Source: a phage. Taken from it: a stretch of 64,000 nucleotides of DNA. The translations under genes and the position numbers were made by a program. Shown here piece by piece: positions 32,164-61,590 of the stretch (within the stretch, counting starts at the first letter, position 1; each line of letters begins with the position of its first letter). Location: assembly GCA_019897865.1 (NCBI GenBank), contig GCA_019897865.1_4532.1; one strand, given 5' to 3'. The notes below the pieces were generated by a model. That model saw only the letters and a program-made list of their open reading frames with translations, was not told the DNA's origin and searched no databases.

Positions 32164-33108
32164 ATGGGACAAATAATTCTTGACAATCGTAACGGAATCA
32201 ATTATAGTGTCTGCGATTTCCATAGGGTAGTGCTGCCTTACTCAAGGCAGTTCTCTTCACAACCTAAACACAACGTTTTCGTTTTTAACGGAGTGCCAAC
32301 AAAAGGTAAAGAGGGCTTTTTAGCCCTTAAAAACCTAGGCTTTAAAATGGTTATGGATTTGGATGACTCTTTAGTTATTCCAAAAGGACACATGTTAGAA
32401 GGTATTTTTGAATCAGGTATTCGTGAACATTTAAAATGGTTTTTAGAGCACAGTGATCTTGTTACAACTACGACACCTGCCTTGCAAGTTGAACTTTCAC
32501 AATACAATGATAATGTGCACATAATCCCTAATGGACTTCCTTACGATGAAGGTCAATTTGTGTTGACCCGTGACCGCTACTCCAAAACTCCATTAGTCTG
32601 GGCTGGAAGTGAAACACATAAACAAGATTTGGCTATCTTGCCCGATTTTGGTAAAGATCTTACAATATGTGGTTTTCGTAGGGATTCTGAAGTTTTAAGT
32701 AGTCGTGAATGGTCTGTAATTAGAGAAAATGTAGCACCAACTTGTGTTTATGAAGGTGTAAGACCATATGCCAACTACATGGAATCTTACGATGGTCATC
32801 AAATCAGTCTTGCACCATTGATCGATAACGTGTTTAATAATGCAAAAAGCAATCTTAAAATTCTTGAGGCAGGTGCTAAGGGTTTACCTTTAATCTGCTC
32901 TCCTCGTGAGAATTATCATACACAAGAGTTTAAAGATTTGTTATTCTTTGCTGAAACACCTTCCGAGTGGAAAGATATTACGGAATACTTATTAAGTGCT
33001 CCCGATGTTTGCATGGAGAAAGGATTAGCATTAGCTAAGTATGTCAGGACTCATTATCACATTGATGTGTTGAATGAGCGTCGTAGACTTTTATTTGAGG
33101 AGCTATAA
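32164..33108 (+). CDS. putative GT-B-fold glycosyltransferase (paralog 2)
   Basis: 314 aa; shares CD(F/Y)HR(V/I)V(L/I)P and NLKILEAGAKG(L/I)P motifs with 31209..32156. Confidence 0.4.
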   Translation: MGQIILDNRNGINYSVCDFHRVVLPYSRQFSSQPKHNVFVFNGVPTKGKEGFLALKNLGFKMVMDLDDSLVIPKGHMLEGIFESGIREHLKWFLEHSDLVTTTTPALQVELSQYNDNVHIIPNGLPYDEGQFVLTRDRYSKTPLVWAGSETHKQDLAILPDFGKDLTICGFRRDSEVLSSREWSVIRENVAPTCVYEGVRPYANYMESYDGHQISLAPLIDNVFNNAKSNLKILEAGAKGLPLICSPRENYHTQEFKDLLFFAETPSEWKDITEYLLSAPDVCMEKGLALAKYVRTHYHIDVLNERRRLLFEEL

Positions 33109-33386
33109 TGATTAACACTTTTGATTTTGAATACACCACTCGTAACGGGAAAGCCTTGGTCGTGGAGGTGGATTACTATTATGAAGAACCTAATCCACTT
33201 TCTCGTGAAAGCGATTGGGATTACCACGGAGGGCTTTTAATTGACGGTATTCGTTTTTATGAAGGATCTACAGAAGTTTTTGAAAAAGATTTAAATGTAA
33301 CTGTAGCAGAAATTGCTTTCCAATTTAGAAAGCACATGGAAGAACTAGAAGCAGAATATATGATGGAGACTAACGAACCATTTTAA
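33108..33386 (+). CDS. hypothetical protein
   Basis: 92-aa ORF, start overlaps upstream stop. Confidence 0.5.
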   Translation: MINTFDFEYTTRNGKALVVEVDYYYEEPNPLSRESDWDYHGGLLIDGIRFYEGSTEVFEKDLNVTVAEIAFQFRKHMEELEAEYMMETNEPF

Positions 33387-33398
33387 CAGGAGAACAAA

Positions 33399-35177
33399 GT
33401 GTCGCACATTATAACTAAATATGGATTTGATGTTGATCTTAGCAAGGAAGGGCATACAGGTTGTCCGCGCTGCATGAAAAATGGCAAGGATCGCTCTCGT
33501 AATAACCTGATGGTTTATGGATTAGATTCTAATGGAGAGCATAAAGGTGCTAAGTGCTTTGCGTGTGAATACACTATTCCTAGCGTAGAATGGTTACGAG
33601 AAAATGGTGAAGTTTTAGAAGAAGAGGAGGAGATTGTGGGTTCGGAATTTAATAAACAGATTCATCGTAAAATTGTTCAAGAAACATCAACCAACCCACG
33701 TGGTTATCGAGGCATTAAAGAAAAAGTTTCATCTTTCTATGGTGTTCGTTATGAATACCGTCAGGAAGGGGATCAGATGGTAGTAGAAAGTTGTTTATAT
33801 CCGACTACCATCGGTAAAGAATTGGTTGGTTTTAAGCGTCGTATTCATCCTAAAGATTTCAGTAAACCTATTGGTCAAGTAGGTAAAGATGTAGATCTTT
33901 TTGGACAAATTCGTTTTGCAGACCGTTCTCATACTGTTGTAATTACAGGTGGTGAACACGATGCTCTGGCAGCTTATCAAATGCTATCTGAAAACTTGGA
34001 CAGTAAATATGAGCTTCCAGCCGTAGTAAGTGGCACAACTGGTGAAACCAGTATGTATAAACAAGTTCAGGCACAATATCCTTTCTTTGAAAAATTTAAG
34101 AAGATTATTGTTTGCATGGATAACGACAAAGCAGGTAATGAGGCATTTGAAAATATTGTTAAGGTGTTACCTCGTAACAAAGTCTACCGTATGCAGATGG
34201 ATCTTAAGGATGCCAATCAGTATCTGGAAGAAGGTCGTGCAAAAGATTTCGTAAAAGCTTTTTGGAGTGCTCGTCTATACACCCCAGCAGGTGTTTATGC
34301 TTCTAATGTCTTGTATGAAGCTGCATTGGAATGCTTGGAATCCAAGATGATTACCTTGCCTCCTTTTATGCGTGTTGCTGCAAATATGTTGGGGGGTGGT
34401 TTAGTAGAGGAAGAGATTACAGTCATCCTGGCAAAGACCAGTATCGGTAAAACTTTGATGGTGAACGAGATCACCAAACATATTATTGTTGCGCACCCAG
34501 AACATACCCTAGGTATTCTGTCCTTGGAAGCAACTTATAAGAAATATTCTCGTAACCTGTTGTCCTCGTTCCTGCATATTCCTCTACACAGGAAAACACC
34601 GGAAGAGAAATTTCAAATCTTGGAAGAGAATAAAGAAAAAATCCTAGATTTTTACGAAAGAGAAGATGGATCACCACGTTTTTATGTGTGTGATGATCGT
34701 GGAGCAGATGTGGAGTCTATCAAAGAAAAAGTTTTGGAGATGATCATCTATTTTGGAGTAACAATTCTTGTTATCGACCCTTATTCTGATTTGCTTTCTG
34801 GTATGGATGTTCAAGCCCAGGAAGAGTTAGCAACATGGTTGAAGCGCATCATGAAAGAGTATGCTATAACCATTATCGTCATCTCACACGTTAAGAAGTC
34901 GGCTAATGGTGGCAATGAACACTTAACAGAGGACGATGCAATGGGTAGTAGTTTCTTGGCTAAAGGTGCTGGTATTACCTTGGCTTTGGAACGAGATAAA
35001 GCCGCTGAAGACCCTGTAGAACGCAATACGACTCATTGCTTTATCCTAAAAAACCGTGAGTTCTCGGAAACTGGTCCGGCAGGGCAGTTTTACTATGACA
35101 TTAGAACTGCAACTCTGCATGACAAAGAGCAGTATTTCAACAATCCTGCTAATTTGCCTACGGATAGCAACTATTAA
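33399..35177 (+). CDS. bifunctional DNA primase/helicase (T7 gp4-like)
   Basis: 592 aa; N-terminal Zn finger CPRC...CFAC, central primase region, C-terminal DnaB-like ATPase with AKTSIGKT. Confidence 0.75.
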   Translation: MSHIITKYGFDVDLSKEGHTGCPRCMKNGKDRSRNNLMVYGLDSNGEHKGAKCFACEYTIPSVEWLRENGEVLEEEEEIVGSEFNKQIHRKIVQETSTNPRGYRGIKEKVSSFYGVRYEYRQEGDQMVVESCLYPTTIGKELVGFKRRIHPKDFSKPIGQVGKDVDLFGQIRFADRSHTVVITGGEHDALAAYQMLSENLDSKYELPAVVSGTTGETSMYKQVQAQYPFFEKFKKIIVCMDNDKAGNEAFENIVKVLPRNKVYRMQMDLKDANQYLEEGRAKDFVKAFWSARLYTPAGVYASNVLYEAALECLESKMITLPPFMRVAANMLGGGLVEEEITVILAKTSIGKTLMVNEITKHIIVAHPEHTLGILSLEATYKKYSRNLLSSFLHIPLHRKTPEEKFQILEENKEKILDFYEREDGSPRFYVCDDRGADVESIKEKVLEMIIYFGVTILVIDPYSDLLSGMDVQAQEELATWLKRIMKEYAITIIVISHVKKSANGGNEHLTEDDAMGSSFLAKGAGITLALERDKAAEDPVERNTTHCFILKNREFSETGPAGQFYYDIRTATLHDKEQYFNNPANLPTDSNY

Positions 35178-35207: not shown

Positions 35208-35236
35208 TTGACAACTTTACGGAAGGGACTTATACT
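35208..35236 (+). promoter_or_regulatory. sigma70-like promoter TTGACA-N17-TATACT
   Basis: -35 at 35208-35213 and -10 at 35231-35236. Confidence 0.6.
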
Positions 35237-35710: not shown

Positions 35711-36505
35711 TTGAGCAAGTTGAATACACTTGATCAATATTACACTAACCCCGCTTATGCGGGGTTCTTATGTGATAAGATCAAAGAAATTTTTGGAGAG
35801 GAAGCTAACTACGTAGAACCATCTGCGGGAGAAGGAGCTTTCTCTTCTTGTTTTAAAAACATAACTTCTTTTGATATTGACCCTAAGTTTGAAGATTGTA
35901 TTGAGGCAGATTTTTTAGCTCAATCTGTTGAGTCTGTTGGCAGTGTAACTGCTTTTGTCGGTAATCCTCCGTTTGGAAAAAATGCTAGTCTTGCCATTAA
36001 GTTCTTTAACCATTGTGCTGAAATGTTGGATAACGAAGGTGGTATTTGTTTTATCTTGCCTCGCACATTTCAAAAAATCTTTTTTGCACACAAACTAAAT
36101 CCCCACATGCATCTTCTTTACGAAGAAGAATGTCCAAAAGGATCTTTTATTCTTCATGGAGAACCTTGGGATGTTCCTTGTGTATTCCAGATATGGATTA
36201 AACGCAACGAGAAGCGTTCTCCCGTTGTTTTAGGAGAGAATCGACTGTTCGTATTAGGTAACAGTAAAGACTACGATATAGCCGTTAGGAGAGCGGGAGC
36301 AAGTGCAGGTAAAGTGTTATCAGAAGAAGATTCTTTATCTGAAGCATCTACCTATTTTTTAAAAGCCTTGACTTCTGATCTTAAAACGCGTATCATTGAG
36401 GCTTACCCGTTACTTAAAGCTGAAGCTAGTAAAACTGCGGGAGTAAGAAGTTTAAGTTTAAAAGAACTTCAGTGGGTTCTGGAGAACATTAGAAAGGAGG
36501 AATAG
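35711..36505 (+). CDS. N6-adenine (amino) DNA methyltransferase
   Basis: 264 aa; AdoMet motif EPSAGEGAF followed by catalytic NPPF; TTG start after AGGAGG. Confidence 0.65.
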   Translation: MSKLNTLDQYYTNPAYAGFLCDKIKEIFGEEANYVEPSAGEGAFSSCFKNITSFDIDPKFEDCIEADFLAQSVESVGSVTAFVGNPPFGKNASLAIKFFNHCAEMLDNEGGICFILPRTFQKIFFAHKLNPHMHLLYEEECPKGSFILHGEPWDVPCVFQIWIKRNEKRSPVVLGENRLFVLGNSKDYDIAVRRAGASAGKVLSEEDSLSEASTYFLKALTSDLKTRIIEAYPLLKAEASKTAGVRSLSLKELQWVLENIRKEE

Positions 36506-39102
36506 TGAGTAAGTTTACATGGGATATTGAAGCAAACGGATTGTTGAATAATGACACTATTGATTATTTAGCTAGTCCTTATCGTCTCAAAGACACATTT
36601 CAAATGCACTGTATTGTCTTAGAGAACCATGAAACAGGAGAAATAGTAGCTTTCCACGATGGCCCTAAATACATCTTTGATGGGCGTCCTTATGAAGAGT
36701 CAGATGGTAAATACACATATGTTCTTAAAGAGTATGTGGCGCAAGATTACACGCATTTTCAACTAAAAGATTTCCCAGACTTTATTAATCATGAAGGTTA
36801 TTTTAAAGACAAGCCTGAATATCTGGTTGAAATGGCTGTGGCTCACAACGGTATCAACTACGACTGGTTGGCTACAAAACTGTTTTATGGATTAGATTAC
36901 AGTGTTAAATATAATACGTGGGGCAAAAATAAGGTAAAACTTATTGACTCCTTGATTTTGAGTAAAGTGTTAAACCCAGATCGAAAGATTGAGGGCAAAT
37001 CAGGACATAGCTTGGCAGCACTTTCTCGAAAAGCAGGTGGTGATGTAAAAATAGATTTCCGTAAAGAGATTCCAGAAGAAGATCGATTTAAGACTTTTGC
37101 TGCGGATATGCTTTATTACTGTATCTATGACAACAAAGCCAATACGAGCGTATATAACTACCTTATGGAAGAATGGGGCGATTATGATAAATGGGAAGGT
37201 CCATTTGAACTTGAACAACGTGTAGCAGACATTATCACACGCCAAGAACACCGTGGGTTTGCTTTTAACATGAAGCAAGCAGAAGAGAACCTTGCTTTTT
37301 TGGATGCAGAAATGGAGCGTCTTCGTTTACTCGTTGAGCCTATTTTGCCACCTAAACCAGCAACAAAAGGCTATCTTAAGGCTTTTATTCCACCTAAGTT
37401 GCAAATTAAAAAGAACTTAGAGCCAACTAACCATATGATCAATTTTGCTAAGAAACATGATGGTCATTTGGAAGAGAGGGATGGCGATTGGTGGTTAGTT
37501 ATGTTGGGGAAAGAGTGGAAACTGCCAGTTGCAGCAGATGAACCTCTATGTGATCCTAACATCCCTGCAACATTGAACGATACAACCCATATTAAAAACT
37601 GGCTTGTAGGATTAGGTTGGGTACCGTCTGAATATAAAGATAAAGACTTGACCCTTAAATCTGGAACCAAGATTAAAAAGAGCGAGGAAGAACTTCAGAA
37701 AGGTATTCGAGCTTACGTTGAGCAAACTCTATCTTCTAATTTTTGTCAGGATCGTTGTGATCATCTGGAGTGCACACCGGAAACCTTGGAAAGGAAGATT
37801 CAAGAGCGTATAGCAAAAGGTAAAGGTCGCGGTCTTAAAGTATTGACTAACCCATGTTTTACCAAAGGTCAGGAAAAAGAAATTTGTCCTAACCTGCAAG
37901 CTTTGGGTGAGAAATTTCCTTATGCTACACAGATTGTAGAATACTTAACGTATAAACACCGTAGGAACTCTATTTTAGGTGGTGGTGCCGATTGGGAAGA
38001 AGACGAAGAAGATCAAGAATACGATAAAGGTTTCTTAGCCGCAGTAAGGGCGGATGGTCGTATTCCTACCCCAGCCGCTACATGTGATGCTGCAACCTCT
38101 CGTATGAAGCATAGATCTGTAGCTAATATTCCTCGTGTCACATCTTTGTTTGGATGGGAGATGCGTAACTTGTTTGGTGTGGAGGTTCCTAAATACTTCC
38201 AGATTGGTTATGACTTCGACTCTTTGGAAGCAAAGATTGAGTCACATTATTGTTGGCGCTACGAACCGGAGCCTCATGAATACTGTAACGCTCTCTTGTT
38301 AGAGAAGCCTAACGATGTTCATACCATGATGGCAAAACGTATTACAGACACTATTGGACGTAAGTTTGAACGTAGTCCAGCGAAATCTGTTAAATACGGG
38401 ATCACTTATGGTGCACAAGCAGACAAGGTTGCTAAAACAATTGGTAGCGATAAGTTTACAGGTCAGTTAGTGTTCGATGCTTTCTGGGAAGCTGCATTCC
38501 CACTGGCACGTCTTAAAGAACGTTTAAACGATTTCTGGGTTAAGACTGGTAAACAGTATGTTTTGGGTATTGACGGTCGTAAGGTTCCTACTCGTTCTGC
38601 TCACGCGATTCTTAACTCTCTGTTCCAAAGTGGTGGGGTTATCTGTGCTAAACGTGCAATGGTTATTTATGACGATATGATCGAAGAAGAAGGACTAAGT
38701 GTTGACTTCTTTAAAGATGACTGGAAGAATAAAGACTTCGTGCAACAAATGATTGCATACCACGATGAAGCCCAGCTTGAAGTTTCTCGTAACCTTGTAG
38801 AATTCAAATGGTTTTCACCTGAATCGTTAGGTTGGAAGAAAGTAGACGATCCTGAAGAACAAAAGAAAATTGATAAAGAATGCCTTGCTAAAGTTGAAGA
38901 ATGGAAGCATAATAAGGAAAAAGAGACGGGACAAATTTGGGCTAATATTCATGAATCTCCCAAAGGTGGATGGTTTACAGCCTATAGTCGGGCAGGTGAA
39001 CTTGCTGCCTTAGCTGTTACTAAGGCTGGAGAATTTTACAATCTTAATGTTCAGCTTACTGCCGGATATGACGTGGGTAATTCCTGGGCATCCTGTCATT
39101 GA
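36505..39102 (+). CDS. family A DNA polymerase with 3'-5' exonuclease domain
   Basis: 865 aa; Exo I WDIEANGL, motif A GYDFDSLEAKI, motif B RSPAKSVKYGITYG, motif C YHDEAQ; GTG start after AAGGAGG. Confidence 0.8.
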   Translation: MSKFTWDIEANGLLNNDTIDYLASPYRLKDTFQMHCIVLENHETGEIVAFHDGPKYIFDGRPYEESDGKYTYVLKEYVAQDYTHFQLKDFPDFINHEGYFKDKPEYLVEMAVAHNGINYDWLATKLFYGLDYSVKYNTWGKNKVKLIDSLILSKVLNPDRKIEGKSGHSLAALSRKAGGDVKIDFRKEIPEEDRFKTFAADMLYYCIYDNKANTSVYNYLMEEWGDYDKWEGPFELEQRVADIITRQEHRGFAFNMKQAEENLAFLDAEMERLRLLVEPILPPKPATKGYLKAFIPPKLQIKKNLEPTNHMINFAKKHDGHLEERDGDWWLVMLGKEWKLPVAADEPLCDPNIPATLNDTTHIKNWLVGLGWVPSEYKDKDLTLKSGTKIKKSEEELQKGIRAYVEQTLSSNFCQDRCDHLECTPETLERKIQERIAKGKGRGLKVLTNPCFTKGQEKEICPNLQALGEKFPYATQIVEYLTYKHRRNSILGGGADWEEDEEDQEYDKGFLAAVRADGRIPTPAATCDAATSRMKHRSVANIPRVTSLFGWEMRNLFGVEVPKYFQIGYDFDSLEAKIESHYCWRYEPEPHEYCNALLLEKPNDVHTMMAKRITDTIGRKFERSPAKSVKYGITYGAQADKVAKTIGSDKFTGQLVFDAFWEAAFPLARLKERLNDFWVKTGKQYVLGIDGRKVPTRSAHAILNSLFQSGGVICAKRAMVIYDDMIEEEGLSVDFFKDDWKNKDFVQQMIAYHDEAQLEVSRNLVEFKWFSPESLGWKKVDDPEEQKKIDKECLAKVEEWKHNKEKETGQIWANIHESPKGGWFTAYSRAGELAALAVTKAGEFYNLNVQLTAGYDVGNSWASCH

Positions 39103-39520: not shown

Positions 39521-39739
39521 ATGCGTAAACTAGTGAGCTTTAATGTTTCAATTCTTATTGATGAACAAAATGAAGATGTTATTAAAGGTCTTGCAAATAA
39601 GATTGCAGGTGGAATGACGGAAGCTGAAGTGTGGGAAGAATGTGCTCGACTTTATGAGGAAGGTGTTATTGAGGTCTTGGGGGATGAGATTAATATGGAC
39701 GATGTTGTAAAAGTAACTGTGGAGCGTATCAATGACTAA
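39521..39739 (+). CDS. hypothetical small acidic protein
   Basis: 72-aa ORF with AAGGAG RBS. Confidence 0.5.
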   Translation: MRKLVSFNVSILIDEQNEDVIKGLANKIAGGMTEAEVWEECARLYEEGVIEVLGDEINMDDVVKVTVERIND

Positions 39740-40328
39740 ATCAAAACAAATCAATATTGCCAAAGAAATTCTTACCGTATTAAAGATCGCTGATCCTAAT
39801 TCTGTCTTGGCTGGCGGTGCTGTTCGTGATTGGCGTATTCTTGATATTGCTGGACGTGATCTGGATTTTTACACGTCTCTTCCTGCACATCGATCAGAAG
39901 AGCAAATACAAGACTTGATTGCATCTGCTTTGATGGGAACTAATATTCGTAAACTAGGAAACAAAGAGGCTTCTGATAACTACGAGGGTGTTACTGGTCT
40001 TAAACACGTTTTTGAATTTGAACGTGATGGTCAGCTTTGCAACCTTATGATTATGGACCCAAATGTAATGACAACCTTTCTGAATGAGTTTGATCTGTCC
40101 ATCTGCCAGGCTGCATTTGATGGAAAGGATTGTTATTACTCTAAAGATTTTGAAACAACTTTGGAAACAGGGATCTGCTTCTTGCACAAAGATGTTAGAG
40201 AAGATGCCAAACATGTTATTAAAATCGCTACGCGTTTCCCATATCTTCGCTTTGTTAAAGAGGTTAAGGTTCCACGTCCACCTCAAGTAGATACCAAATC
40301 GGAAGAAGAAGATGATATTCCTTGGTAA
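39732..40328 (+). CDS. minimal Pol-beta-superfamily nucleotidyltransferase (CCA/poly(A) polymerase head-like) with SSB-tail-like C-terminus
   Basis: 198 aa; LAGGAVRDWRIL...DLDFY matches the GGAVRD...D.D head motif; C-terminus EEEDDIPW. Confidence 0.5.
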   Translation: MTKSKQINIAKEILTVLKIADPNSVLAGGAVRDWRILDIAGRDLDFYTSLPAHRSEEQIQDLIASALMGTNIRKLGNKEASDNYEGVTGLKHVFEFERDGQLCNLMIMDPNVMTTFLNEFDLSICQAAFDGKDCYYSKDFETTLETGICFLHKDVREDAKHVIKIATRFPYLRFVKEVKVPRPPQVDTKSEEEDDIPW

Positions 40329-40373
40329 TTAAAGCTTGACAATATTAAACATTTTATGATAGGATAGCATTCA

Positions 40374-40766
40374 ATGACTGAACGTTCTAAGATAGCTGTT
40401 GAAACTGTTTATGGAAACTATACCAGTTTGACACTAGTTGAGAAAAATGTTGTAGGTCTTGACAACTCTTTTTATTTTCAAATTTTGGTTATTCAAGGTG
40501 GAAACAAGAAGCTAACTGCTCGTGTTGAAACATCTGAAATAATTGAAACCACTGTTACAAACAAAGAATTCATTTCACTGCAAGATACAATCCGAAACGT
40601 TATAGACGAAGAAGGCAAAGCTGCCACAATTAAACTCGGAGGTTTCCCAGTGCAAATAGTTCATTTTCCTAATGGTGAAATTGGAGTTGGAATAGGTAAA
40701 GGTAAATACCTGTTAGAGCAAGATGATATGGAAAGACTCCGCTCTTTCTGTGCAAAATTAATGTAA
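40374..40766 (+). CDS. hypothetical protein
   Basis: 130-aa ORF; no obvious SD. Confidence 0.45.
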   Translation: MTERSKIAVETVYGNYTSLTLVEKNVVGLDNSFYFQILVIQGGNKKLTARVETSEIIETTVTNKEFISLQDTIRNVIDEEGKAATIKLGGFPVQIVHFPNGEIGVGIGKGKYLLEQDDMERLRSFCAKLM

Positions 40767-40782
40767 TGTAGAGGAGATAATA

Positions 40783-41670
40783 ATGTCCGTAATTAATACT
40801 GAAACTGATCGTAAAGGCAAAACCGTAACTTATGCAACTGGTATCGTAGACTACGTTAAACTGGATAAATTCGCTGAACCTAAAACTTTTCATTGGGAAG
40901 GAAAAACGATTGTTTCAACTCACCGAGCCTCTCTTGTTCTGAAAGAGAAAGGTGCTAAACCAGATGAGAAAGGTGTTTGGATTTCTCTTGGTGACATTGA
41001 ACTGAAAGAAGGTTATGAAAACCTGCAAGTCAAAGAAGGTGATAATTGGATCACTATTGAAAAAGGTGTAGAAGTAAGTATTGATATTGATCGCGTTGAT
41101 AATAAAGGCGGTAAAACTTACTACAATACTAAAAAATCTCGTATTACAGTATTGTCTACCGATGGTGTTCAGAAGTCTAACAAATCTTCTGGCAATAAAG
41201 GTTCCAACGATGCTGCTCCTAAGCAGTCCTATAAAAAACGTGATACTGTAGGTCTGGAAACTGGTCACGCAGTAAATGGTGCACTGGAACTGATTCGTAA
41301 TGGTGTTAAAGGCGATGCTTTCGATATCGCTGGGGTTGTTCAATCTGCAACTGTCACGCTGAAATCTGAAATTGCTGAATCTCGTGGCGTTGATATTAAT
41401 GATTATGATCTTGGGGCATCTGTTGGTCACGCTATTCTCAATGCTTGTAAAGACCATACCATTAAGACTGTCTCTGTAGAAGATCTGATTGAGTCTGCTC
41501 GTAAAGTTCTGGCTCTGTCTGATAAAGTTGCTGCTGCCATTCGTGGTTCCGCAGAACAGCCTAAGAAAGAAGAGAAGAAAGAAGTTAAGAAACCTGAACC
41601 ACAACCAGAACCAACTCCAAGTAATCAAGAAGAACCTCCAATGGACTTCGACGATGATATTCCATTCTGA
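40783..41670 (+). CDS. single-stranded DNA-binding protein-like protein with host-SSB-type C-terminal tail
   Basis: 295 aa; last residues PSNQEEPPMDFDDDIPF match the E. coli SSB tail; acidic Pro-rich linker; GAGGAG RBS. Confidence 0.6.
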   Translation: MSVINTETDRKGKTVTYATGIVDYVKLDKFAEPKTFHWEGKTIVSTHRASLVLKEKGAKPDEKGVWISLGDIELKEGYENLQVKEGDNWITIEKGVEVSIDIDRVDNKGGKTYYNTKKSRITVLSTDGVQKSNKSSGNKGSNDAAPKQSYKKRDTVGLETGHAVNGALELIRNGVKGDAFDIAGVVQSATVTLKSEIAESRGVDINDYDLGASVGHAILNACKDHTIKTVSVEDLIESARKVLALSDKVAAAIRGSAEQPKKEEKKEVKKPEPQPEPTPSNQEEPPMDFDDDIPF

Positions 41671-41705
41671 TCTTATTGATTTATAAAGAGTTTTTTATAA
41701 AAGAA

Positions 41706-41736
41706 AAGGGAACCTTTGCGGGTTCCCTTTTTTATT
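41706..41736. terminator. Bidirectional Rho-independent terminator between convergent SSB and fibre genes
   Basis: gggaacc tttgcg ggttccc hairpin flanked by AAAAGAAAA upstream and TTTTTTATT downstream. Confidence 0.75.
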
Positions 41737-58713: not shown

Positions 58714-61590
58714 TTACTCGGTAACGTCCACACTAATGTTTGCCATTGTCAAAACAGTAAGTGCAGGAATATTGCTCGAATCCAAAACAGGTAATGCATT
58801 TTGGGGATTAAGTTTTTTGTATAAAGCATACAACCCAAAACCACGTAACAACTCTCCAGCGTGGAAGCCAAAGAAGACTCCGTTATCACTATCTGGTCTA
58901 GGAGCGGCACTCCAACAACCATTCATGACGTGATTAGGACCAAGAACAATATAGTTTTCCTGAATAAGTTCAAAACAGCGGTCTGCTACTATTTTAATGT
59001 TAGGAATTTCTGAATCATATCCAGCCATCCCCATTATAGCACATCCCGCCATAAAGAGCGCAGACATGTGACTTGTAAAGTCATCTACAGGCGCAGCCAC
59101 TTCTCCATTGGGATAAAATATTGTTGGTGTTCTTCCTTCGTTGTTATCTTGGAACCATTTCAGATAGTTGATCCAGTTTTTACAAACTGTTAAAAGTTTT
59201 TCAGGAACTTCTGCTCCTCGTTGTTTCAGTTCGTATACTGTATGACACGCACAGAAGAATGCTCGTGCTTCATAACCATCCCAAGCTTTATCGTTCCAAT
59301 GATACATTGTGAACTCATTCTTGTTTCCGTATTTATGAGCATCCCAACGATCCCAAACATAAGCTTGTGCCATTGGTCCAGGCATCACAGGGGCAAACTT
59401 ATTATAAAACCACATTTGTGAATCATATAAAAAGTCTATACTGTTGTTCATACGAACCCAATCAATATCTCTCCCTTTAAAACAATATAAGGATGGGTAT
59501 TGATAACCTGGGTAAGGAATACCACGCCAACCGTCATATAAGGCTGTGTTAGGATCACTGATATTGGAAAATGGAATGATTCCTGGAGTATAATTCAAAC
59601 TGTTAAGTTTGTAGTCCAGTATTGTACAATCTCCAAGTTTTGCTGTATAAGGATTTTCAGATGAAACTGTAACCCTGAAATACATTGTGTAATCATCACC
59701 AGTGGCTGAAGAATACAAAGATGGGATATCGTTAACGCAATAAAAATCGATTGCCCCTGTCAAGCCATTTGCAGGTTCAGAATCCAATGCAATATTGATC
59801 TGATCAACAGCAGTCAGGTTTATTGACGAAGGTTTTGCCTCTGTGTCTTCGTGATTAGGTTGCCAAGTACTTAATTTGAAATCGGCAGGACTTAAAGCTT
59901 TAGTAACCCATGCAGAATTTGTTTTTTCTAACATGGCCCACCATCTCCAACCTGCAGAATCCGTAATAGTGATGTTAAAATCATCTGCGTATGAACGATA
60001 CGTAATAGATTTTAAATTGGCTGTTTTAGTTGGTGTTAACCAAAACCCAACAGTAAAACCACCATCTGAATCCATATTAGCAGAAACTATCTGATCACTA
60101 TTTGTCCCAGCAATACCAGTTGCATATTTATATTGTATCACAGTATTGCTTCCCCAGTCAACAATGATTCTAGGTTCAGCAATAATATATACACCACCTC
60201 CAGGAGGTTCGGTGCGCATAAAACTGGATAAAGGTATATCCATCTTAGTCATATTAGCTGCACCAAGAGGTAAGCCACAACGATATGTCACTGTGTCTGT
60301 TTCACTCTTAGTCTTGCTTAATTCTAACTCTGGACGGAAAAGAACACCTTCCCCTGCATCATCTACACCTTGAAACTCAATACGCAGTTTTGAATTCTGA
60401 TCCACTCTGAACCAAACTGCCTGTTGTTCTAGAGTTGTTTGTGCTGCAACATCTTGGCGAATTACTGTGTATCCTAATTCATCACGAGAATATTTAGGTA
60501 TTGCTGTAGATGGGTATGAGTAATCATACGAGATACCATCTGTAAAAGGAATTATTGCTGTCGTAGATCTACGGAAGAATTTATCAAACATATCGATGTT
60601 TGAGTAGTCTTGACACAACAATAAAGAAGATTGCCAGCAAAGCCAGTATTTTCTCTCTCCTGTGATCTGATACATCAAGTAGTTTGCATCACACCACCAC
60701 GTTTCAGCATCGGAAGCATTATCTTGATAACCTAACTCTACCGGAACGTTTACAGGACGGTTATGCCACATCTCATTACGCTTAAGCAGATATCCACCGT
60801 GTTCTACAGGGTTGCATGTAGCGTAGTTGAATTTATAATCACCGTTCACAGAAGCATTTTTAAGTTGCACTGTTCCATATTCTGCGAAGCTGTGACCTGT
60901 AGATAAAATGTTACCATCCCAATCAACTTTACGTCCTAGACGGTCTATAATCCATTCAACGTCCCACTGATCTCCATATTCTTTCCAGTTGGTTGAACCA
61001 TCTGGGTTAGTTGCATACACTGTTGCGTTAACAGAGTTCCAACCAAGATTACCATTGAAAGCAAACCAAGCTTTATCTAAGTATTCTCCCCAGTGTGGCG
61101 CACCTTTAGGAATAACAGTCCTTCCGTTAATCCAAGTCATCATGCTACCTTTGAACCCGCCGTGCGTAGGATATCCATCATCTGTGAGAGGGTAGTGTGC
61201 TAAACGTGGTTCTTTACCATTGATGATCCAGTTGGGACGATATTTAGCCGGAGGATCAGGAATAGGTTGGCCCCCGAAGAAGTGATCTATATAGGCTTGC
61301 CAATACTTCTCGGCAGATTCAAGATATTTTTTATCCCCTGTAGCCAAATATGCATAAGCAAAACCAGTGATAAGCACAGATTGACCTTCGGTAGTAGCGT
61401 CACCGTTTGGTTGCCCTTCCTGCGCTGTCCAGTTAATAAAGTGTCTGTTGTTCGCCAATACGTTTTGTGGGTTGATAATGTAGTGCTGAACCGTAGGATC
61501 TATAGTAAGCCCAGTATTTCTTTCCAGAAACTGAACCAACCCTTCAATCAACTGAAACGTGTTGTCAATATTGTGCTTAACTCTTGACAT
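58714..61590 (-). CDS. large baseplate/tail-associated protein, possible glycan-degrading enzyme
   Basis: 958 aa, Trp/Tyr-rich; no secure motif. Confidence 0.4.
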   Translation of the reverse strand: MSRVKHNIDNTFQLIEGLVQFLERNTGLTIDPTVQHYIINPQNVLANNRHFINWTAQEGQPNGDATTEGQSVLITGFAYAYLATGDKKYLESAEKYWQAYIDHFFGGQPIPDPPAKYRPNWIINGKEPRLAHYPLTDDGYPTHGGFKGSMMTWINGRTVIPKGAPHWGEYLDKAWFAFNGNLGWNSVNATVYATNPDGSTNWKEYGDQWDVEWIIDRLGRKVDWDGNILSTGHSFAEYGTVQLKNASVNGDYKFNYATCNPVEHGGYLLKRNEMWHNRPVNVPVELGYQDNASDAETWWCDANYLMYQITGERKYWLCWQSSLLLCQDYSNIDMFDKFFRRSTTAIIPFTDGISYDYSYPSTAIPKYSRDELGYTVIRQDVAAQTTLEQQAVWFRVDQNSKLRIEFQGVDDAGEGVLFRPELELSKTKSETDTVTYRCGLPLGAANMTKMDIPLSSFMRTEPPGGGVYIIAEPRIIVDWGSNTVIQYKYATGIAGTNSDQIVSANMDSDGGFTVGFWLTPTKTANLKSITYRSYADDFNITITDSAGWRWWAMLEKTNSAWVTKALSPADFKLSTWQPNHEDTEAKPSSINLTAVDQINIALDSEPANGLTGAIDFYCVNDIPSLYSSATGDDYTMYFRVTVSSENPYTAKLGDCTILDYKLNSLNYTPGIIPFSNISDPNTALYDGWRGIPYPGYQYPSLYCFKGRDIDWVRMNNSIDFLYDSQMWFYNKFAPVMPGPMAQAYVWDRWDAHKYGNKNEFTMYHWNDKAWDGYEARAFFCACHTVYELKQRGAEVPEKLLTVCKNWINYLKWFQDNNEGRTPTIFYPNGEVAAPVDDFTSHMSALFMAGCAIMGMAGYDSEIPNIKIVADRCFELIQENYIVLGPNHVMNGCWSAAPRPDSDNGVFFGFHAGELLRGFGLYALYKKLNPQNALPVLDSSNIPALTVLTMANISVDVTE

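Follow-up and report, generated by a model that had tools for sequence, protein, structure and literature searches.

The T7 proteins gp2.5 and gp4 carry acidic, Phe-terminated tails that dock on the polymerase gp5, and the tails of gp2.5 and gp32 also fold back onto the DNA-binding clefts of their own proteins. A different phage protein, Gad2 of Bacillus phage SPbetaL7, counteracts the Gabija defence system. It is 400 residues long and has an AlphaFold-predicted nucleotidyltransferase domain; SPbetaL7 is sensitised to Gabija when Gad2 is knocked out, expression of Gad2 is toxic, and 170 homologues have been reported (bioRxiv 10.1101/2023.05.01.538930). The mechanism of Gad2 was given as unknown as late as 2026 (PMC12881386). 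Gabija is put at more than 15% of sequenced genomes in one account (PMC10781630) and is described in another as acting on DNA ends (PMC12407980). The gene discussed here lies in a 64,000-nucleotide stretch of phage DNA (contig GCA_019897865.1_4532.1, the whole of which is called the window below). It encodes a 198-residue nucleotidyltransferase that is related to Gad2, lies in a replication module and ends in a peptide resembling the C-terminal tip of SSB, the protein that binds single-stranded DNA.

The source of the window is a Phapecoctavirus (Stephanstirmvirinae), a phAPEC8-like phage. The nucleotidyltransferase has an exact match (100% identity) in Escherichia phage AV125 and shares 96% identity with phAPEC8_00183; at an identity of at least 90%, it is present in 65 phage records. 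The gene starts at an ATG that overlaps a preceding 72-codon open reading frame (ORF) by 8 nucleotides at the stop of the latter and has the sequence GGAG 7 nucleotides upstream. The protein falls into phrog_10174 of the PHROGs database (E 5.5e-63), and its GenBank names are 'nucleotidyltransferase' or 'putative tRNA nucleotidyl transferase / poly(A) polymerase'. Neither the gene nor its placement in the nucleotidyltransferase superfamily is new. In contrast, the literature searched makes no mention of an enzyme with an SSB-tip-like end, of the tight tie of the family to T7-like replication modules or of the homology to Gad2, and it offered nothing relevant on SSB-tail mimics, on DDIPW or DIPW strings or on phage-encoded CCA enzymes. 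An earlier, sequence-only reading of the window had picked out the ORF, its nucleotidyltransferase motifs, its EEEDDIPW end and an SSB tip two genes downstream, and all of these were found where it had placed them (Table 1).

The fold of the protein was predicted with AlphaFold2 from an alignment of 109 sequences. The model has a mean predicted local distance difference test score (pLDDT) of 92.7 and a predicted template-modelling score (pTM) of 0.85, is ordered over residues 1-178, and contains the head-domain fold of class II CCA-adding and poly(A) enzymes. Its top Foldseek matches in the Protein Data Bank (PDB) are the Aquifex CC-adding enzyme, the Thermotoga CCA-adding enzyme, E. coli poly(A) polymerase and an A-adding enzyme, with E values of 2.5e-5 to 1e-3 and template-modelling (TM) scores of 0.5-0.58 over about 190 columns. 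The head motif named in the sequence-only reading is present as GGAVRD (residues 28-33) and DLD (residues 43-45), and this segment can be aligned to motif A of solved CCA-adding enzymes. Residues G28, G29, D43 and D45 are invariant among 109 diverse relatives (about 25% identity), more than 90% of which also keep R32, D33, W34, Y84 and K164. Judged by the model, the 198-residue protein is a Pol-β-fold nucleotidyltransferase, nearest to the class II CCA/poly(A) enzymes, with its catalytic dyad intact. The fold and the catalytic Asp residues, which the sequence-only reading had singled out for checking, thus both bear it out. So does the size of the protein, which had been said to lack the body and tail domains: the ordered core has about 178 residues, compared to about 370-420 for the bacterial enzymes among the best structural matches.

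The family is large and almost exclusively phage-borne. A profile search of 1.84 billion cluster representatives (E up to 1e-3) returned 1038 related clusters at 50% identity, mostly stand-alone proteins of 175-230 residues. Among 185,579 bacterial and archaeal species, each represented by one genome, members were found at only six loci, all of them on contigs of metagenome-assembled genomes. A single-sequence search of the PDB with the nucleotidyltransferase gave only noise, such as the plant abscisic-acid receptor PYL1. The NCBIfam and PADLOC models had no match for it, and models of defence and toxin nucleotidyltransferases (CD-NTase, MenT/AbiEii, MNT) had no match at the sequence level. 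Because of its near-absence from the 185,579 genomes, the lack of a PADLOC match and its replication-module context, the gene is a phage gene and not a bacterial toxin or defence gene; a bacterial origin and a toxin-antitoxin context were both rejected on the genome count. Phage KP34 contains no member of the family. Vibrio phage ICP1 encodes a truncated one, the 137-residue ORF223 (locus L033, 9956..10369), which comprises only the N-terminal two thirds of the core.

The closest characterised relative, as judged by profile comparison, is the nucleotidyltransferase domain of Gad2. Many relatives have precomputed weak or faint hits to the Pfam family PF26128 'Gad2'; a local Pfam scan gave no PF26128 hit for the window protein or for five relatives. 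When the family profile was aligned by hhalign to the Gad2 sequences in the supplement of bioRxiv 10.1101/2023.05.01.538930, the probability was 93-95% (best 94.9%, E 4.4e-8) with E values of 4e-8 to 4e-7 over about 120 columns. The alignment joins residues 11-154 of the window protein to residues 16-141 of Gad2, and the window protein ends 44 residues past it. The HMMER profile of the family scores Gad2 at 28-31 bits, the Klebsiella phage protein fHe-Kpn01 Gp22 at 14.8 bits and the E. coli Cca control at 6.8 bits. Beyond motif A, the family and Gad2 have a common signature, AGGA...D-x-D-x-Y, Q-x-M, F-D-x-[ST]-[IV]-C and then D-F. At the level of sequence profiles, then, the family is a short relative of the Gad2 nucleotidyltransferase domain and is more distant from the class II CCA/poly(A) head.

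The second feature of the protein is its end. The final residues, ...KSEEEDDIPW, are encoded up to the codons gat gat att cct tgg taa at 40311..40328. The resemblance to the SSB tip (DDDIPF) pointed out in the sequence-only reading is real: an acidic run is followed by Ile, Pro and an aromatic residue. There is no secondary structure past residue 176 of the model, and the mean pLDDT drops to 73 and 58 in the last two blocks of 10 residues. With low pLDDT taken as a proxy for disorder, the acidic tail of about 20 residues is probably flexible. All homologues of 58-96% identity end in D(D)IPW, although the preceding linker varies in both length and sequence. It is also retained by more distant relatives, as KDIPW in Citrobacter phage Tr1 (36% identity) and as PDDIPW in the metagenomic relative P0016 (35% identity), whose contig has the same gene order. 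In the window, which has 93 genes, only the nucleotidyltransferase and the SSB-like protein end in D-D-I-P-aromatic. Acidic/aromatic ends of other sequence are carried by further proteins of the replication module, and they recall those of T7 gp2.5 and gp4. A strict definition of the tip, x-[IVLAT]-P-[FWY]$, is matched by 6 of 147 family representatives and by 11 of 980 neighbouring replication-module proteins, 10 of these 11 being SSB-like. Compared with the non-SSB neighbours, of which 1 of 970 has such a tip, the enrichment in the family is significant (Fisher p = 3e-5).

The protein with the corresponding SSB tip is a 295-residue probable phage SSB. Its last 12 residues, EPPMDFDDDIPF, match the end of E. 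coli SSB (PDB 1eqq) exactly. The tail alone matches SSB models; the globular part has no match among solved SSBs or in the PDB, Pfam or NCBIfam. The gene is conserved near the nucleotidyltransferase gene across the Stephanstirmvirinae.

Both genes belong to a same-strand run that consists of a promoter, a 143-residue ORF, an N6-adenine methyltransferase, the DNA polymerase PolA, three small ORFs, the nucleotidyltransferase, a 130-residue ORF, the SSB-like gene and a hairpin. The primase-helicase gene is located just upstream of this promoter-headed run. The 130-residue protein is always positioned between the nucleotidyltransferase and the SSB-like gene in phAPEC8, Tr1, muut, FKP3 and phi1_175008 (Stephanstirmvirinae). 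The wider context was examined in 47 non-redundant viral loci with a family member, within a distance of 7 kb. A primase-helicase is present in 32 of the 47 loci, typically directly upstream and ending about 60 nucleotides before the nucleotidyltransferase; PolA is present in 25, and the cluster of the 130-residue protein in 6. Other recurrent neighbours are DNA ligase, 5'-3' flap exonuclease, ThyX and gp2.5-like SSBs. Further contigs outside this sample show the same replication context, whereas the P0119 relative is placed among nucleotide-metabolism genes instead. The nucleotidyltransferase is probably expressed together with the genes of the replisome.

The explanation that we prefer, tentatively and at a little less than an even chance, is that the protein is an active Gad2-like enzyme that docks at the replisome or SSB hub by means of its SSB-tip mimic and processes or protects replication intermediates there. 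A catalytically competent, minimal Pol-β-fold nucleotidyltransferase would be made alongside the replication genes, and in Phapecoctavirus this enzyme would have gained an SSB-tip-like docking peptide on a flexible acidic tail. The DDIPW tip would dock on the surfaces that receive DDDIPF of the phage SSB-like protein or of host SSB, with the phage polymerase, the primase-helicase or host SSB-interacting proteins as candidate receptors. The enzyme would thereby be brought to single-stranded DNA at replication forks, where it could transfer nucleotides to an acceptor, such as a 3'-OH end, independently of a template. This would likely serve to protect or process phage replication intermediates and not to rebuild the CCA ends of tRNA. 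An anti-defence purpose is plausible because of the homology to Gad2. Among the three roles proposed in the sequence-only reading, that of a replisome-associated factor is the best supported, by the module context and the conserved tip; the docking that it invoked we infer.

Several observations weigh against this explanation. Under a looser definition of the tip, which asks for an aromatic end and two or more acidic residues, the enrichment is no more than about two-fold (15 of 147 representatives, compared to 47 of 980 neighbours). The tip is restricted to certain lineages and most family members lack it, so that it is not essential to the core function of the family. The sister genera end otherwise: ...NNEEFKI in Justusliebigvirus (muut), and ...DDAWDDDKI or ...DQAWDDL in Klebsiella phages. 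Other phages pair differing tips on the nucleotidyltransferase and the putative SSB, for example ...ESWETPF with ...EDDIPW, ...STFDFSF with ...DETPDW, and ...SNDIPW with ...DDFDDF. Strict mimicry is therefore not general, and the idea that the nucleotidyltransferase copies the SSB tip of its own genome holds in Phapecoctavirus but not as a rule. Docking further presupposes that a C-terminal Trp would fit into the pockets that accept the Phe of SSB. Gene neighbourhood is a sign of co-expression, not of physical association. Finally, Gad2 has a C-terminal region of about 260 residues that is absent here and lacks the R-D-W residues, and its own mechanism is unknown.

The annotation in public records invites another explanation, that the protein is a tRNA 3'-end repair or CCA-adding enzyme for tRNAs of the host or the phage that suffer damage in the course of infection or from tRNA-targeting defences, its tail being incidental. 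Motif A and the overall fold come nearest to the class II enzymes that add CCA, CC or A, a cluster of 11 tRNA genes is present in the close relative phAPEC8, and defences that cleave tRNA are common. However, the neck, body and tail domains that bind tRNA or RNA are absent, which leaves nothing of the usual kind to hold a tRNA. The Pfam PolyA_pol model (PF01743) scores the protein at 15.2 bits (E 0.028, residues 26-71 only), below its 23-bit cut-off, and the scores of relatives are likewise sub-threshold. The family profile aligns to solved CCA enzymes over about 40 residues, and to E. coli Cca with 24% hhalign probability over 24 columns, in motif A only. As motifs B-E could not be mapped by sequence against E. 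coli Cca, they were counted without alignment: motif B (RRD) occurs in none of the 109 relatives, and the motif D pattern [ED]DxxR in 10 of 109 at scattered positions, with no conserved EDxxR column. All 11 phAPEC8 tRNA genes (locus L089, 9143..11148, corresponding to phAPEC8 59143..61148) encode their CCA, so that no CCA would have to be synthesised from scratch; no tRNA gene lies within the 64-kb window. Furthermore, some phages with a family member, Vibrio phage 1.264.O for one, have no tRNA genes, and RNA ligase and the polynucleotide kinase-phosphatase Pnkp are not among the recurrent neighbours in the 47 loci. Maturation of tRNA was rejected as the main role on the encoded CCA ends and the tRNA-less carrier, and the tRNA 3' end repair suggested in the sequence-only reading is weakened by the same body of evidence; we consider it very improbable. 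The name 'tRNA nucleotidyl transferase / poly(A) polymerase' in public records probably misleads.

Three further explanations keep the enzyme and dispense with the hub. The protein could be a minimal poly(A)-polymerase-like or MenT-like enzyme of host takeover, which tails host RNAs or tRNAs and so speeds their decay or blocks translation, thus providing nucleotides for phage DNA synthesis. Klebsiella phage fHe-Kpn01 Gp22, a protein of similar size encoded right after PolA, is toxic in E. coli (PMC7291057), as SPbetaL7 Gad2 is on expression, and the P0119 relative lies among nucleotide-metabolism genes. Yet the likeness to Gp22 is confined to motif A (hhalign 75%, 28 columns; 14.8 bits), on which ground Gp22 was rejected as a family member, and RNA tailing offers no explanation for the SSB-tip-like end; this explanation is unlikely. 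About equally improbable is that the end is no mimic of the SSB hub and serves as a T7-style tail for the polymerase of the phage only, or as an auto-inhibitory element in the enzyme's own nucleic-acid groove. The T7 and gp32 tails described above are precedents for both, and other acidic or aromatic ends are found in the same module, ...TDSNY on the primase-helicase and ...ETNEPF on a 92-residue protein. The non-identical tips of the nucleotidyltransferase and the SSB-like protein in other phages and the different acidic tails of the sister genera point in the same direction. Nevertheless, D-D-I-P before a terminal aromatic residue is the E. coli SSB tip, which is more than a generic acidic tail needs, and the exact copy of 12 host residues on the adjacent SSB-like protein points to use of the host hub. 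Finally, the protein might be a dedicated anti-Gabija enzyme, a short Gad2 orthologue whose nucleotidyltransferase activity alone neutralises GajAB and whose tail has no targeting role. This is more unlikely than the preceding two explanations. The homology to the Gad2 domain, the Gabija sensitivity of the knockout and the abundance of Gabija given above argue for it; against it, the alignment covers only about 120 of the 400 residues of Gad2, whose C-terminal two thirds have no counterpart here, the gene belongs to a conserved replication operon and not, like that of Gad2, to a variable anti-defence locus, the 1038 clusters of the family at 50% identity far outnumber the 170 Gad2 homologues, and the mechanism of Gad2 is itself listed as unknown.

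A bolder version of the preferred explanation can also be put forward, although it is doubtful. The protein would be the first enzyme to use an SSB tip as an address label. Plugged into the SSB-interaction hub of host and phage, it would nucleotidylate 3' ends of DNA or RNA, or a hub or defence protein, at replication forks and so blind defences, Gabija for example, to the DNA ends or the SSB that they sense, and it would then reveal the mechanism of Gad2. If the tip truly docks on the receptors of the SSB C-terminus, the SSB interaction hub is open to hijack by cargo other than SSB, of which the literature searched gives no example. Irrespective of the tip, T7-like and phAPEC8-like phages carry in their replication modules a large and almost exclusively phage-borne family with no known function. 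Through its link to Gad2, the protein offers a small model enzyme that folds well, with which to study the defeat of Gabija by a nucleotidyltransferase.

Table 1. Features of the nucleotidyltransferase gene and its replication module, in window coordinates
Feature	Coordinates	Strand	Basis
Minimal nucleotidyltransferase gene, 198 residues	39732..40328 (including stop codon)	+	ORF and translation
Catalytic motif A, G28 G29 A V R D33 ... D43 L D45	39813..39866	+	Alignment of 109 relatives, solved CCA enzymes and Gad2
C-terminal tail, residues 179-198, variable linker and acidic run	40266..40325	+	Low model confidence
D-D-I-P-W tip at the extreme C-terminus	40311..40325	+	Conservation in homologues
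130-residue protein, function unknown, phrog_16560	40374..40766	+	No family or structure match
295-residue SSB-tail-bearing protein, probable phage SSB	40783..41670	+	phrog_4477; ends NQEEPPMDFDDDIPF
SSB tip EPPMDFDDDIPF	41632..41667	+	phmmer alignment to PDB 1eqq and 7f2n
T7 gp4-like Toprim/DnaB primase-helicase, end ...NLPTDSNY	33399..35177	+	NCBIfam DnaB and primase; homologous cluster Pfam Toprim_2 and DnaB_C
Sigma-70-like promoter TTGACA-17-TATACT, head of the run	35208..35236	+	11/12 consensus match only; 'host dependent promoter' at this place in phAPEC8
Family A DNA polymerase with 3'-5' exonuclease	36505..39102	+	NCBIfam PolA, phAPEC8 annotation
Terminator-like hairpin, 11-bp stem followed by T run	41704..41731	-	Between convergent SSB-like and tail-fibre genes; terminator at this place in phAPEC8

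Several other elements of the module deserve description. A site that resembles a promoter, TTGACA-18-TAGGAT with an extended -10 TG, is positioned at 40336..40365, right after the stop of the nucleotidyltransferase gene and upstream of the 130-residue ORF. Going by its sequence, it may be an internal promoter for the genes of the 130-residue and SSB-like proteins. The putative N6-adenine DNA methyltransferase (35711..36505; phrog_5172, weak Eco57I match) has a TTG start and abuts PolA from upstream. PolA itself varies in length, with 865 residues in the window, 1110 in AV125 (locus L086, 40583..43915) and 1099 on a related metagenomic contig (locus L099, 6285..9584), which suggests an inserted element, an intein or a homing-type element, in the PolA of some relatives. 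Upstream of the primase-helicase, the 92-residue protein (33108..33386, phrog_4240), conserved in related phages, ends in ...METNEPF.

The SSB-like proteins of related phages have variable ends. In Justusliebigvirus muut and Citrobacter phage Tr1 (loci L002, 7064..8035, and L003, 7026..7973), the protein runs 15 residues beyond the tip, as DDDIPF-APIGLQYGRNFLHCF; this extension would bury the free carboxylate of the tip. Marine-type phages encode proteins of about 225-245 residues beside PolA with acidic, Trp-ended tails, ...DDVPW, ...DKDIPW, ...EDTPW, ...EDDIPW and ...ETPDW (L024, 727..1416; L030, 7134..7805; L041, 7807..8544; L101, 2029..2721; L102, 7104..7793). Those of L024, L030 and L041 belong to phrog_862, which has no known function. 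These proteins may be an unrecognised class of SSB, in which case they would show that Trp tips occur on SSB-like proteins.

Compared with known systems, the window protein has structural counterparts in the class II enzymes that add CCA, CC or A and in bacterial poly(A) polymerase (PF01743; PDB 1miv, 3h37, 3wfr, 4wby and 3aql). They have in common the Pol-β head fold, the N-terminal helix and motif A, GGxVRD...DxD, but the phage protein is half their size or less and lacks the body and tail, RRD and a conserved EDxxR. The stand-alone head domain of a CCA-adding enzyme, NP_344798.1 (PDB 2la3, 191 residues), has no sequence similarity to the family profile at E values up to 10. Small phage-borne proteins of the same fold are fHe-Kpn01 Gp22 and the nucleotidyltransferase or PolyA_pol head proteins of about 170-215 residues of the T7-like phages LKD16, Cd1 and phiAS7; Gp22, with its gene directly after PolA, resembles the window protein in motif A only and is without an SSB-like tip.

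Gad2, from Bacillus phage SPbetaL7 and a Brevibacillus prophage, is likewise phage-encoded and has a homologous core. Unlike the window protein, it has about 400 residues, two thirds of which form the C-terminal region, lacks the R32-D33-W34 signature of the phage family as well as the SSB-like tip, and is located in an anti-defence hotspot and not in a replication operon. The tail of the window protein has its counterpart in the E. coli SSB tip, ...MDFDDDIPF, with which it has in common the acidic run and I-P-aromatic at a free C-terminus, on a tail modelled with low confidence and in a replication module; the acidic, aromatic-ended tails of T7 gp2.5 and gp4 are further counterparts. The window protein differs from SSB in that the tip is borne by a Pol-β enzyme, not by a single-stranded DNA-binding protein with an oligonucleotide/oligosaccharide-binding (OB) fold, and in that the terminal residue is Trp where SSB has Phe.

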